Source of the DNA: Candidatus Micrarchaeota archaeon
Lineage (GTDB): Archaea; Micrarchaeota; Micrarchaeia; Micrarchaeales; Micrarchaeaceae
Reading direction: 5' to 3'
Length of the DNA: 31,197 nucleotides
Assembly (NCBI GenBank): GCA_027365815.1
Contig: DAHXLV010000009.1
Span: 1 to 31,197, forward strand
Each line of letters starts with the position of its first letter. The first letter of the stretch is position 1. Shown one piece after another: positions 12,023-15,265 of the stretch. Under the pieces are notes generated by a model that saw only the letters and a list, made by a program, of their open reading frames with translations, did no database searches and was not told the DNA's origin. Both the position numbers and the translations under genes were made by a program.

Positions 12023-12766
12023 TCACGATTCCATGTACGGTGCCAGGAAATACGCCACGGTAGCATCGCCTATTTTATAGTTTATCTTGACAGGCTCCTC
12101 CGTCTTAAGCGATATGTCTATCGAGTTCCCTGGAGGGCATGCCCTCACCATCCTGTCAAGGTACTCCAGGTTGAAAGTTGCAGCGGATGCTTTGCTCACG
12201 TTGAGCTTCTTCACGAAATCGGTGTTGTTTGCGTGATCTTCCTCCAGCTCGGCGGCATCGCCCTTTGCGGATATCTTGAAGTTGTCCTTTTCTGTCTTGA
12301 ACCCTATCAGCGATGAAAGGGACGTCGCGTCCTTCAGCACCTCTCTGAACGGGTCGCTCTTGACCTCGATTGTTGATTCAAATTCTATCTTTGGCTCCTT
12401 ATCCGCTTCCTTCTTTATGTCTATCATCGGCAGTCGGTACCTCCTCCTGCTGTTCTCGCCTATGAATTCTATTGCAAGCTTGTTGCTCGCATCCTTCATT
12501 ACCAGCTGTTCGTTGTTCCTGGCGCTAGAGAGTATCTTGCTGAGGTTCTCGAGGTTTATGCCTATCGAAATCGGCTTCTCGACCTCATATTTGGAGAATG
12601 CCTTGCTTGGCATGAAGAAGGATACCATGCTTATTCCAGAAGGGTCCATGGCCTTGAGCGCTATGCCCTCTTTTGTTATGTTGAATGCGCCTTCATCTAC
12701 AAGGCTCACTATAGAGTCGACGCAATTCTTCCAGTACCTAGCATCATCTATCTTTATGTCAAACAT
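12023..12766 (-). CDS. pcn: DNA polymerase sliding clamp PCNA
   Basis: AMDPSGISMV, INLENLSKIL, FNLEYL and C-terminal YFLAP. 247 aa from ATG 12766. Confidence 0.96.
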   Translation of the reverse strand: MFDIKIDDARYWKNCVDSIVSLVDEGAFNITKEGIALKAMDPSGISMVSFFMPSKAFSKYEVEKPISIGINLENLSKILSSARNNEQLVMKDASNKLAIEFIGENSRRRYRLPMIDIKKEADKEPKIEFESTIEVKSDPFREVLKDATSLSSLIGFKTEKDNFKISAKGDAAELEEDHANNTDFVKKLNVSKASAATFNLEYLDRMVRACPPGNSIDISLKTEEPVKINYKIGDATVAYFLAPYMES

Positions 12767-12824
12767 AGAACCACACAGTAATAGTACATCTATTCTGTCG
12801 TAAAGGAATAAAAAGATATGCAAA

Positions 12825-12905
12825 GCCCAGTAATAGGGGAATACCCACGTATTTCTGCCCCAGCATTTCATGTGCCGGTTTTCCGTGTACGCCCATACGC
12901 AGGGC
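12825..12905 (-). ncRNA. Candidate 81-nt structured small RNA of unknown class
   Basis: TTTATAA at 12932-12926 lies about 25 nt upstream. Terminal GCCC/GGGC stem, internal hairpins and a downstream TTTGCATATCTTTTT tract. Confidence 0.4.
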
Positions 12906-13062: not shown

Positions 13063-13998
13063 TTATGCGCTTAAGATTCCGTCTACAGAGGTGGGCGCGA
13101 ACCTAAGCTCGTTCATCCTTGCTTTCGCTGCATCTATAGCTTGCCTTGTGATCTCAGCTGTCCTCTCTGGAAGGTCCATCGTTATGTTGTTTTGAGGAGG
13201 CTCACCAGCTGCAATCTCCTGCGCGAGCACGTTGCAGTCGCCGAGGGCCTTGAACCTCATCCTTCTGCTCACCCCCGCCTCTTTGAGCAGCACTGCTGCC
13301 GTGGCTCTAAGCTTGAGAGCATTGATTGCCGCTTCGTGTGGATCCATGTGCTCCGTAATCGCCTCGCGAGATGCAAGGTCATAGTTGTCCCCAGCCGCCT
13401 CCAGCATCTCGTTTCTAGCTCCAGTGTGTCTGATTGCCTCAATGCCGTTATCGAAAACCGTCACTGTGTCTTTATTGTGGCTGAGCATACCTTCCAGGGT
13501 AATGTGGATGAGTCTCGTGTCTGGTTCTATTGAGCCGATGGAGACCTGCTGCTCTAGGATATCCTTCACCTTCGCCGCCCTTTCCAATAGGTGAGCTGCC
13601 ATCTCGGCGCTCACGGCTGCCTCAAGGCATTTGCCGGTTTTTTCAGCTGATTCAAACCTGTATTTTAGCGACAGGAATAACTGCGCCACTGTGGCGCCAA
13701 CATCGTACGGGTTTGTGATCCCCGGGAATTCCTCCATTGCGCCTATAATCGCATCGGTGGCCTTTAAGAACGCCCCAACATTCTCCTCAAAGCAGGCCAT
13801 ATCTGGCACATTGATTTGGGAGATTAGTGTTTCCATTCTCTGATTGATGGTGAGTTTAGAAAGCTCCGCGGTTGCGAATCTTAAGTATTGCGTGTTGGAT
13901 TCTGTCACAGCCCTAAGCAGGTTGCCGGACAGCGTTAATACATTATCTGCGTCGAATGGCGGGCTTCTGCGGACTAGTACAGATTTGTCGCTGTGCAT
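13063..13998 (-). CDS. Hypothetical alpha-helical protein (311 aa)
   Basis: ATG 13998 lies about 23 nt downstream of CATATAAATA (14030-14021), consistent with a leaderless start. No motif recognised. Confidence 0.7.
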   Translation of the reverse strand: MHSDKSVLVRRSPPFDADNVLTLSGNLLRAVTESNTQYLRFATAELSKLTINQRMETLISQINVPDMACFEENVGAFLKATDAIIGAMEEFPGITNPYDVGATVAQLFLSLKYRFESAEKTGKCLEAAVSAEMAAHLLERAAKVKDILEQQVSIGSIEPDTRLIHITLEGMLSHNKDTVTVFDNGIEAIRHTGARNEMLEAAGDNYDLASREAITEHMDPHEAAINALKLRATAAVLLKEAGVSRRMRFKALGDCNVLAQEIAAGEPPQNNITMDLPERTAEITRQAIDAAKARMNELRFAPTSVDGILSA

Positions 13999-14052
13999 GC
14001 CAATGCCTCGCCGGAACAGATATTTATATGTTTTGTTGAGGTCGGCTTTGGA

Positions 14053-14133
14053 GCTTAGATGCCAATGAGCTATAGAAAGGCGGTCAAACTGCGAAGCCGC
14101 TGCGCTGCACCCTGCGTGGTTGCGCAACTGAGC
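14053..14133 (+). ncRNA. Candidate structured small RNA with a K-turn-like terminus (strand uncertain)
   Basis: GC-rich island of about 80 nt between two promoters. GC-TTA-GATG ... CTGA-GC ends and internal stems GGCGGT/GCCGCT and GCGC/GCGC. Confidence 0.3.
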
Positions 14134-14174
14134 AAAAACATTTATTATAGCTCTGCGCTAATCGATAGGTTTCC

Positions 14175-15125
14175 ATGCAGCGCGAAGATAACTTGCAGTT
14201 CTCGTATAAATATCCGTTTTCCGATGAGGCGAAGGCTGCGGTGCACTCTGGCGGTTCAGATACCAGGCGGTTGAGCGAAAGGCACCTTGAGATGGCGAAG
14301 GCCAGGCTGGAGGAGGCGTTATCGAAAGGCAAGCTTGAGTATAGGAACATAGCGTACGGCAAGCTCGACTACATAATAAGCTACGTTTATGCGCGAATGC
14401 TTGTTAGCTCGATGGGCAGCAGGGCCGCAATCGTGAAGTTCGCCGCGGCTGAAGCTGAAAGGGCGAGGGCGGCCCTCGAGAGTGACGACGATAATGATGT
14501 GCTGCGCCTGGCGGGCGAGCTTGGCCTTCCCATATCCATGGACGCAGGCGGTAATTATAAGATACAGTTCCAGCTCTTGCTGCATCATATGGCAGGCGTA
14601 CCTGGATTCTCCCTTTCCAACTTCAAACTGCATGGCGGGGAGATTTTGCTAGACAGGCATGAGGCAGCGAGGCTGCTTGAGAATGCGATCTTCATAAGGA
14701 TCCTGAATGGCCTTCCGATAAAACATAGCGAGCTTCCGCAGAAGGTGATTGCGGCGGCGAAGACGATAGTGCAGCCCGCCGTAACAATAAGGCCAGGTGT
14801 GGTGGGCAGCAGGGCGTGGATAGACAAGTTGCTTGAGACTCCGATACCTGACATGAGGCACAGGGTCGTCAACCTTGTGCTGGCGCCTTACCTTGTCAAC
14901 ATAAAAGGATTGAGCGTGGAGGATGCGGCGAAGACCATAGCTGTTTATGTCGAAAGGTGCAAGGGGCTTGACCCGAACACAAAGATCAACGACTCTTACA
15001 TAAGGTACCAATGCACCTACGCCAAAAAGCGCGGGCTCAAGCCGCTGTCGCTCGCGCGTGCAAAGGAACTTTTCGGCAGCGTGGTAGATTTCGACCAGCA
15101 TGTGGAGAAGGAGGTGGCGAGATGA
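14175..15125 (+). CDS. priL: DNA primase large subunit: PriL N-terminal domain plus a PriX-like C-terminal domain
   Basis: The N-terminus (YPFSDEAK, YARMLVS, AEAERA, LSNFKLHGGEILL) is PriL-like. The C-terminus (WIDKLLETPIPDMRHRVVNLVLAPYLVNIKG...GLKPLS) is PriX-like. Only 2 Cys in the protein. Confidence 0.85.
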   Translation: MQREDNLQFSYKYPFSDEAKAAVHSGGSDTRRLSERHLEMAKARLEEALSKGKLEYRNIAYGKLDYIISYVYARMLVSSMGSRAAIVKFAAAEAERARAALESDDDNDVLRLAGELGLPISMDAGGNYKIQFQLLLHHMAGVPGFSLSNFKLHGGEILLDRHEAARLLENAIFIRILNGLPIKHSELPQKVIAAAKTIVQPAVTIRPGVVGSRAWIDKLLETPIPDMRHRVVNLVLAPYLVNIKGLSVEDAAKTIAVYVERCKGLDPNTKINDSYIRYQCTYAKKRGLKPLSLARAKELFGSVVDFDQHVEKEVAR

Positions 15126-15265
15126 TGGCTACGCTGCCTTGCAGCATCTGCGGGATGCCTGCCGGCAACACCTGTTCCGTGTGCGGAAAGAGGGCATGCA
15201 ACAGGCACTATGATAGGAGGCTCGGAACCTGCACCTCATGCAAAGCCGGAAAAAGGATGAAGTGA
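15122..15265 (+). CDS. Small Cys-rich zinc-finger protein (47 aa)
   Basis: SD GAGGTG and ATGA overlap with priL. Pattern CSIC-x6-CSVC-x4-CNRH-x7-CTSC. Confidence 0.8.
   Translation: MMATLPCSICGMPAGNTCSVCGKRACNRHYDRRLGTCTSCKAGKRMK

Follow-up and report, generated by a model that had tools for sequence, protein, structure and literature searches.

The role of the [4Fe-4S] cluster in the large subunit of primase is disputed, as it has been regarded as structural, as a redox switch, or as serving DNA charge transport, and the evidence to date that it is dispensable comes only from in vitro studies of a Sulfolobus chimera and of Cys mutants of the Nanoarchaeum equitans enzyme (PMC5700102, PMC10250227). 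In the chimera, residues 1–211 of Sulfolobus solfataricus PriL were joined to residues 42–154 of PriX (PDB entry 5OFN), and together with PriS this protein showed wild-type primer synthesis with no Fe-S cluster (Holzer et al. 2017, PMC5700102). In S. solfataricus PriX, the initiating nucleotide is held through its triphosphate by D70, R72, and R74, as crystallography and mutation have shown (PMC6393858, PMC5700102). The R72A mutant of this PriX is defective in initiation but still competent in elongation. A monomeric PriS-PriL primase is known from Nanoarchaeota and the "cluster II" DPANN (NEQ395, PMC10250227), and its Cys mutants prime without the cluster; the cluster-I DPANN have been described as having classical PriS and PriL (PMC10250227). 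Domains of the helix-bundle or PriCT type are also found fused to the archaeo-eukaryotic primase (AEP) primase-polymerases that mobile elements encode (Kazlauskas et al. 2018, PMC5862659). Papers published up to 2026 assign PriX to the Sulfolobales or to crenarchaea and call the cluster highly conserved (PMC9258230, PMC12680538, PMC12770985). Neither PriX nor the primase large subunit was connected with Micrarchaeota in any paper that our literature search returned. Here, we describe priL-X, a gene located in a 31,197-nt stretch of DNA of a Candidatus Micrarchaeota archaeon (contig DAHXLV010000009.1 of assembly GCA_027365815.1; this whole stretch is called the window below), in which a PriL N-terminal domain (NTD) is followed by a PriX-type domain at the place of the Fe-S C-terminal domain (CTD). 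The parts of the gene are as follows:

14175..15125, plus strand: priL-X, primase large (noncatalytic) subunit of 316 amino acids, with PriL-NTD, linker, and PriX-type domain (open reading frame and domain matches)
14175..14759, plus strand: PriL-NTD, residues 1–195, presumed PriS-binding scaffold (NCBIfam PriL models at residues 11–190)
14760..14813, plus strand: flexible interdomain linker, residues 196–213 (low model confidence, no predicted secondary structure)
14814..15074, plus strand: PriX-type five-helix domain, residues 214–300, where the Fe-S PriL-CTD would sit (PF18689, NF033412, hhalign, Foldseek)
14850..14864, plus strand: D226-M-R228-H229-R230, predicted binding site for the 5′-triphosphate of the initiating nucleotide (alignment to S. 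solfataricus PriX)
14958..14960, plus strand: codon of C262 (Cys in 161 of 161 family members)
15012..15014, plus strand: codon of C280 (Cys in 157 of 161 members, Val or Ile in the other four)

An earlier note, made from the letters of the window, had read this gene as a PriL-type N-terminal half joined to a PriX-type part whose signature peptide begins at about nucleotide 14817, in a protein with only two cysteines, and the analysis bears out each of these observations. Five NCBIfam equivalog models of PriL covered only residues ∼11–190 of priL-X, which correspond to the N-terminal half of the models themselves, and the profile of the family NTDs matched canonical Micrarchaeota PriL NTDs with E-values from 1e-21 to 1e-50. 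The Pfam PriX model PF18689 matched residues 214–298 (E-value 1.6e-13; 51.1 bits, with the cut-off at 25), and the NCBIfam PriX model NF033412 matched residues 214–311 (108.3 bits, with the cut-off at 50); the signature peptide quoted in the note indeed starts at about residue 215. The NCBI pipeline already labels these proteins as "PriX," and so the domain call is present in the databases. When priL-X was compared with the whole PDB using HMMER, the top sequence match was chain 5OFN_B, annotated as "PriL-X fusion protein" (query residues 24–298 against chain residues 21–308, E-value 1e-15), followed by PriX itself (4WYH, 5OF3_C), and then by the NTD of S. solfataricus PriL (1ZT2_B).

The same division was seen in the predicted structure. 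An AlphaFold model based on 33 family members had a mean predicted local distance difference test (pLDDT) score of 89.3, and of ∼90 in the PriX-type domain. It consisted of a helical NTD at residues 1–195, a disordered linker, in which residues 205–210 had pLDDT values below 50, and a five-helix bundle at residues 214–300; the linker was weakly conserved and varied in length across the family alignment. Foldseek paired the NTD with S. solfataricus PriL-NTD (1ZT2_D; TM score 0.76, 3.3 Å over 203 columns) and with Pyrococcus PriL-NTD, while the C-terminal domain superimposed on S. solfataricus PriX with a TM score of 0.73, a root-mean-square deviation (rmsd) of 1.8 Å, and 34% identity (4WYH), and on 5OF3_C with an rmsd of 1.9 Å and 35% identity. 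The N-terminal extension of PriX is not present in priL-X, and in the model the linker takes its place.

The assignment of the C-terminal domain was examined by comparing three profiles in hhalign, one of the fused family (165 CTDs), one of stand-alone PriX (15 proteins from a sample of Thermoproteota genomes), and one of canonical PriL-CTDs from other Micrarchaeota families (nine sequences). The fused CTD matched stand-alone PriX with a probability of 99.6% and an E-value of 7e-25 over 99 columns, and canonical Micrarchaeota PriL-CTD with a probability of 91.5% and an E-value of 9e-7 over 52 columns; between stand-alone PriX and canonical PriL-CTD there was no significant match (probability 0.3%). 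In the HMMER alignment, D226, R228, and R230 of priL-X fall on the triphosphate-binding residues D70, R72, and R74 of S. solfataricus PriX. The aspartate and the second arginine are present in 161 of 161 family members and R228 in 160, and the intervening H229 in 154. The Fe-S PriL-CTD model PF04104 had no match in the window genome, and in the relatives it gave only weak matches, at profile positions 2–79, inside the fused open reading frame. The second canonical ligand ("MPSC") aligned, in a weak hhalign alignment, to "PLSL" of priL-X (S292/L293), and by eye the first one ("PPC-I-K-K-L") corresponds to "A-W215-I-D-K-L," in which W215 is found in all 161 members. The terminal Cys pair has no counterpart, as priL-X ends before that segment. 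These data confirm that the C-terminus of priL-X is a PriX-type domain, in a natural PriL(NTD)-PriX architecture.

The window belongs to a genome of 477 kb in 50 contigs, which contains one PriX match and no canonical priL. The sequencing runs listed for the locus are all of DNA and come from a single mine-drainage metagenome study. As this genome is 57% complete, the absence of priS and of canonical priL was tested in relatives. Among 41 relatives of the same order, PriX was found once in each of 40 genomes, always in a frame of ∼310–350 amino acids, and PriS was a separate, single-copy gene of ∼390 amino acids in 37 of 41, including 11 of the 12 of the same genus. The only genome of family f2 in this set lacked PriX and had a canonical 307-amino-acid PriL with a Cys-rich CTD (four to five Cys). 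In two genomes of one f3 genus (G031, C16:1693-4293; G039, C28:6797-9444) priS lies immediately upstream of priL-X. The survey was then extended to an even sample of 161 Micrarchaeota genomes of at least 80% completeness, comprising the families f1 and f3 and 20 others. PF18689 was found in 47/47 f1 and 27/27 f3 genomes, and in 0/86 genomes of the other families, while canonical PriL (PF04104, E-value ≤ 1e-5) was found in 0/47, 1/27 (a weak match inside the fused open reading frame), and 65/86, respectively. The full-length PriL model NF002588 matched exactly once per f1 or f3 genome, at profile positions ∼7–200 only, as compared to ∼4–340 in the canonical families. None of the 74 f1 and f3 genomes had a second PriL-like gene or a canonical priL, including six that are single contigs (G020, G032, G035, G062, G115, G123); G010, a single-contig genome outside the sample, showed the same pattern. 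The fused form is a shared derived character of the two sister families f1 and f3.

Some database entries of this family are probably mislabeled. A Micrarchaeota-type priL-X of 64% identity (DATJLP010000007.1) is filed as "Candidatus Acidoferrum sp.," close homologs are filed as "Marsarchaeota" (entries P0003 and P0100 among the mislabeled ones), and one homolog is a JGI "phage terminase small subunit."

Taken together, these results make it likely that priL-X is the sole, cluster-free PriL-PriX large subunit of a primase with a separate PriS, and that its PriX-type module was swapped in. PriL-X would be the only noncatalytic large subunit of the replicative primase in this acid-mine-drainage Micrarchaeota lineage. 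Its PriL-NTD would dock onto the separately encoded PriS, and the flexible linker of ∼18 residues would tether the PriX-type bundle where the four-Cys [4Fe-4S] CTD would otherwise be. The D-x-R-H-R motif is predicted to hold the 5′-triphosphate of the initiating nucleotide, and later the 5′ end of the primer, facing the PriS active site. Such holding of the nucleotide would permit dinucleotide formation and "caliper" counting of primer length, as has been shown for S. solfataricus PriX and the chimera. The enzyme formed by PriS and priL-X would most likely work without any Fe-S cluster, and would then fall into the functional class of Fe-S-independent primases defined by Holzer et al. 2017. 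From the architecture and the conserved residues we infer that priL-X binds PriS and nucleoside triphosphates, is free of metal, and is active in priming. The module itself would most likely have been swapped in, in the common ancestor of the two sister families, from the pool of PriX-type domains carried by AEP primase-polymerases and by small stand-alone proteins, which are partly viral.

Three observations weigh against this interpretation. There is no PriS match in the window's own genome, which is 57% complete. The domain tree, with its 113 columns, has an unresolved backbone, and the support of the fused clade is only 87–89 in the Shimodaira-Hasegawa approximate likelihood ratio test (SH-aLRT). 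Finally, both cysteines and H229 are conserved, and the sequence may thus be compatible with a noncanonical or intersubunit metal site.

With regard to the origin of the module, the alternative that retains the most weight, although we consider it improbable, is that there was no fusion, and that the lineage's own PriL-CTD lost its cluster in place and drifted toward PriX; this concerns origin only, as the function would be the same. The domain order is that of ordinary PriL, and the fused CTD shares with canonical Micrarchaeota PriL-CTD 35% identity over 52 columns, with a common RYQ..Y...K..P.S block. A homolog search with the CTD alone returned only three fragments. An exhaustive phmmer search with residues 205–316 of priL-X revealed a much wider distribution of PriX-type domains than previously assumed, many of them on AEP primase-polymerases. 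It returned 399 representative clusters (at 50% identity) in three tiers, which were PriL-fused proteins of ∼310 amino acids, proteins of 340–600 amino acids with the domain placed after an AEP catalytic domain (PF01896/PF21686), as in Nitrosocosmicus and other Nitrososphaerales, and stand-alone proteins of 110–190 amino acids. In hhalign comparisons the fused CTD matched the AEP-fused domains with an E-value of 7e-44 and the short stand-alone ones with 5e-40, as compared to 3e-23 for Sulfolobales-type PriX and 1e-5 for the canonical CTDs of the same phylum. It is thus 30–40 orders of magnitude nearer to the AEP-fused and stand-alone groups than to the canonical CTDs of its sister families. 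The weak link to canonical CTD is common to all PriX-type groups except the Sulfolobales type, and it is equally strong for AEP-fused and stand-alone domains (E-value ∼1e-5 each), hence it is not clade-specific, and we rejected the residual similarity as a mark of in situ origin. In the domain tree (162 rows) the Micrarchaeota fused clade was coherent and stood apart from the clade of stand-alone Thermoproteota PriX (support 97); when the tree was rooted on canonical CTDs the fused clade arose from a basal polytomy, as decay in place would allow. Ligand loss in place has apparently occurred in another Micrarchaeota family, f10, yet no intermediates were found on the way to priL-X, and f2, of the same order, has a fully canonical CTD. 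Because these comparisons place the fused CTD nearer to the PriX-type domains of AEP-fused and stand-alone proteins than to the canonical CTDs of its own phylum, we favor, with some reserve, a domain swap from a mobile-element pool of PriX-type domains over decay in situ. The word "fusion," understood as a historical event, is accordingly favored and not proven.

The search also revealed several related proteins. The AEP-PriX proteins of ∼345–600 amino acids (P0162–P0183) were seen in Nitrosocosmicus and Nitrososphaerales loci L015:527-1561, L016:5233-6285, L017:4885-5919, L029, and L030, with one Nitrosocosmicus genome having two copies. They are the closest non-PriL relatives of the window CTD, with DxD, GGGYH, and RIPGT motifs in the catalytic part and a shared AWIDKLLETPIPD in the C-terminal PriX-type domain. 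At L027:4001-4414 and L028:4001-4414, a stand-alone PriX-type gene of 137 amino acids overlaps the start of a gene for a 695-amino-acid family-B DNA polymerase, on contigs of 65–94 kb with many small unannotated open reading frames, which have the look of a virus or another mobile element that encodes a PriX-like initiation factor of its own. Stand-alone proteins of ∼150 amino acids (P0204, P0206, P0236; clade support 98) carry an N-terminal four-Cys zinc-ribbon-like extension. P0144 (142 amino acids), considered as a stand-alone or split form, was rejected, as it comes from a long-read contig in which a frameshift interrupts a fused gene.

There is also a second, divergent group of proteins that combine PriL-NTD with PriX (P0190, P0193, P0207, P0216), with one to three Cys in total. 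One of them is from a metagenome-assembled genome of "Candidatus Geothermarchaeota" (L051:2610-3629, and L052), in which the search with PF04104 gave no match. This lineage may represent an independent origin of the same architecture; one origin for all PriL-fused PriX domains was not rejected by the approximately unbiased test (p 0.30). A third, divergent type of PriL-CTD, missed by both PF04104 and PF18689, occurs in other Micrarchaeota families. It keeps the four-Cys pattern LPC...FSC...C..C in L055–L058 (f11, f18, f22, and f15), while in L053, L054, and L059 (f10) the ligands are replaced (LPAM...FSM) and the terminal CxxC is missing. The replaced residues suggest a second, in situ loss of the Fe-S ligands in f10, and the ligands have probably been lost more than once within Micrarchaeota.

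The two cysteines of priL-X, C262 and C280, bear on the question of a metal center. Across the 161 members only two alignment columns had Cys above 15%, and the modal Cys count of the CTD was two. C262, which is invariant, lies within an insertion of ∼10 residues relative to canonical PriL-CTD; its counterpart in S. solfataricus PriX is Leu, and many PriX-type domains of the stand-alone and AEP-fused kinds likewise have Cys here. C280 aligns to Val of the canonical "YQVEY," and its position is Val or Ala in the second PriL-PriX lineage. Because Cys at this position exchanges with Val or Ile, C280 behaves, as judged from the alignment, as a buried hydrophobic residue rather than as an obligate ligand. 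This exchange, together with Leu at the C262 position of S. solfataricus PriX, makes the absence of an Fe-S cluster from priL-X likely.

A further possible source of ligands is encoded directly downstream:

15122..15265, plus strand: gene of a 47-amino-acid Cys7His1 cross-brace zinc miniprotein, its ATG overlapping the priL-X stop codon in ATGA (sequence and family alignment)
15110..15116, plus strand: GGAGGTG, Shine-Dalgarno-like, 5 nt before the miniprotein ATG and within the 3′ end of priL-X, function predicted (sequence inspection)

The ligands C7, C10, C18, C21, C26, H29, C37, and C40 of the miniprotein are invariant, and it has subthreshold matches to cross-brace two-zinc fingers, which were the ANCHR-like B-box for 7/7 members and zf-HIT for 6/7. 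When positions were compared by hand, the miniprotein gene was directly 3′ of priL-X in 41/48 f1 and 20/27 f3 genomes (61/75 in total). Weaker homologs were found in 27/86 genomes with canonical PriL, with none of ∼25 placeable ones beside priL, and none of the eight canonical priL loci with downstream sequence had the miniprotein after priL. It was also absent from the Geothermarchaeota PriL-PriX loci. Since homologs occur unlinked in genomes with canonical PriL, this is an older zinc module that became linked to priL in the clade with the swapped CTD. In the two genomes where priS adjoins priL-X, G031 and G039, the miniprotein gene is not adjacent to priL-X, being located elsewhere or not found. 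Open reading frames of 119–154 amino acids with a tandem double Cys7His module (G088:C22:21924-22202, G163:C21:42630-42929, G047:C21:172050-172328, G015:C10:2591-2890, G054:C3:3957-4250, G021:C40:1609-1887, and G023:C11:70535-70780) indicate that the module forms a small domain family in Micrarchaeota.

The miniprotein could be taken to complete a metal center, an atypical Fe-S or a zinc one, kept by priL-X through C262, C280, and H229, so that what the cluster does, as a redox or structural element, would persist in another form. The conservation of these three residues is consistent with such a center, as is an eight-ligand Cys/His protein that is translationally coupled to priL-X and never found beside canonical priL. 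We nevertheless consider this quite unlikely. C280 is replaced in four family members and in all of the second PriL-PriX lineage, where one protein has a single Cys in its entire length, and the S. solfataricus PriX with Leu at the C262 position is metal-free in crystal structures (PMC5700102). H229 sits between two phosphate-binding arginines, and the ligand spacing of the miniprotein is that of the B-box/zf-HIT two-zinc fingers; the miniprotein is, moreover, already present at unlinked loci in lineages with canonical PriL. A broader scenario, in which the two Micrarchaeota families replicate with a wholly cluster-free primase, a mobile-element-type primase was the source of the initiation module that replaced the ancestral Fe-S domain, and the two-zinc miniprotein was recruited simultaneously as a third subunit, is only a tentative proposal, and we regard it as rather doubtful. 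That priL-X is an accessory paralog, such as a repair primase subunit or a mobile-element remnant, with the true replicative PriL in the unassembled 43% of the genome, might be suggested by the incomplete assembly and by the frequency of PriX-type domains on mobile-element primases, but it is effectively excluded, because the single-contig f1 and f3 genomes show the same sole-PriL pattern, and moreover priL-X is single-copy, its NTD and the canonical PriL-NTDs of sister families are orthologs, and in some relatives it lies beside PCNA (L026) or PriS (G031, G039).

In the surroundings of the gene, one more element was noted upstream:

14141..14149, plus strand: TATA-like box TTTATTATA, with its center ∼30 nt 5′ of the ATG (sequence inspection)

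The spacing of this predicted promoter element would imply a leaderless or near-leaderless priL-X mRNA. An open reading frame of 354 amino acids on the minus strand (13063-14127), with no Pfam or NCBIfam match, is located between tRNA-Pro and priL-X, and it stands between PCNA (12023-12871, minus strand) and priL-X in the window. In L002, with canonical priL, and in L026, with the fused form, PCNA adjoins priL directly on the same strand.

A free-replicating, though symbiotic, archaeal clade with a cluster-free sole PriL would be the natural version of the chimera experiment. If the broader scenario of a wholly cluster-free primase is true, it would be a natural in vivo demonstration that the PriL cluster, and with it any redox or DNA charge-transport signaling, is unnecessary for cellular DNA replication, and the data suggest that the "universal" iron-sulfur cluster of primase is dispensable in living cells. 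PriS and PriL-X also constitute a simple system for biochemical and structural work, and co-cultures of acidophilic Micrarchaeota of the Micrarchaeum/Mancarchaeum type exist.

Among the known systems, the engineered chimera 5OFN has the same domain order and boundaries as priL-X, with PriL-NTD, a linker of ∼16–18 residues, and the PriX bundle, and no Fe-S domain. By analogy, priL-X appears to be the functional natural equivalent of this protein. On the other hand, it occurs in nature, where an entire clade has no other large subunit, its identity to the counterparts in the chimera is ∼20% over the NTD and ∼35% over the PriX part, and it comes from a mine-drainage DPANN archaeon, while the chimera derives from a hyperthermophilic crenarchaeon. 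The Sulfolobales PriX (PF18689, NF033412; 4WYH, 5OF3), itself cluster-free, has the same fold and the same D-x-R-x-R motif as priL-X. It is, however, a stand-alone protein of ∼150 amino acids, with an N-terminal segment of ∼47 residues through which it binds to the Fe-S CTD of a coexisting PriL. In priL-X the domain is fused to PriL-NTD without this extension, with two conserved Cys and an "LDPNT" insertion that are additional relative to S. solfataricus PriX, and no Fe-S PriL was found in its clade; the two domains form separate clades in the domain tree. With canonical PriL (PF04104; 1ZT2, 2DLA, human p58) priL-X shares an orthologous NTD and the single copy, and in most of its relatives PriS is likewise a separate gene. 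The two CTDs are distantly homologous (E-value ∼1e-6), although in priL-X both the four ligand cysteines and the C-terminal segment with the Cys pair are missing, and the PF04104 match ends by position ∼79.

Compared to the mobile-element AEP primase-polymerases with helix-bundle or PriCT-type domains, such as pRN1 ORF904, of which the PriX-type AEP fusions of Nitrosocosmicus and others are the nearest relatives of the priL-X CTD, the difference is in the carrier. In those proteins the module is placed on the catalytic domain of a single-chain primase, and in priL-X on the noncatalytic PriL scaffold of a cellular replicative primase. The NEQ395-type enzyme likewise represents a rearrangement of primase domains within DPANN, in which PriS is fused to a PriL-CTD-like domain and the Fe-S cluster is natively kept, whereas in the Micrarchaeota enzyme PriS is separate and the Fe-S domain has been replaced. 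The earlier note had proposed a two-subunit primase and a third architecture. The first proposal agrees with the separate PriS in the relatives, but may be incomplete, as the translationally coupled zinc miniprotein follows priL-X; the second has to be corrected, because there are four architectures: PriS with Fe-S PriL, PriS with Fe-S PriL and PriX (in Sulfolobales and some other crenarchaea), monomeric PriS-PriL, and PriS with PriL(NTD)-PriX. Since it has neither the Fe-S feature of PriL nor the feature of PriX as a stand-alone third subunit, priL-X is a variant, and not a plain member of either family.

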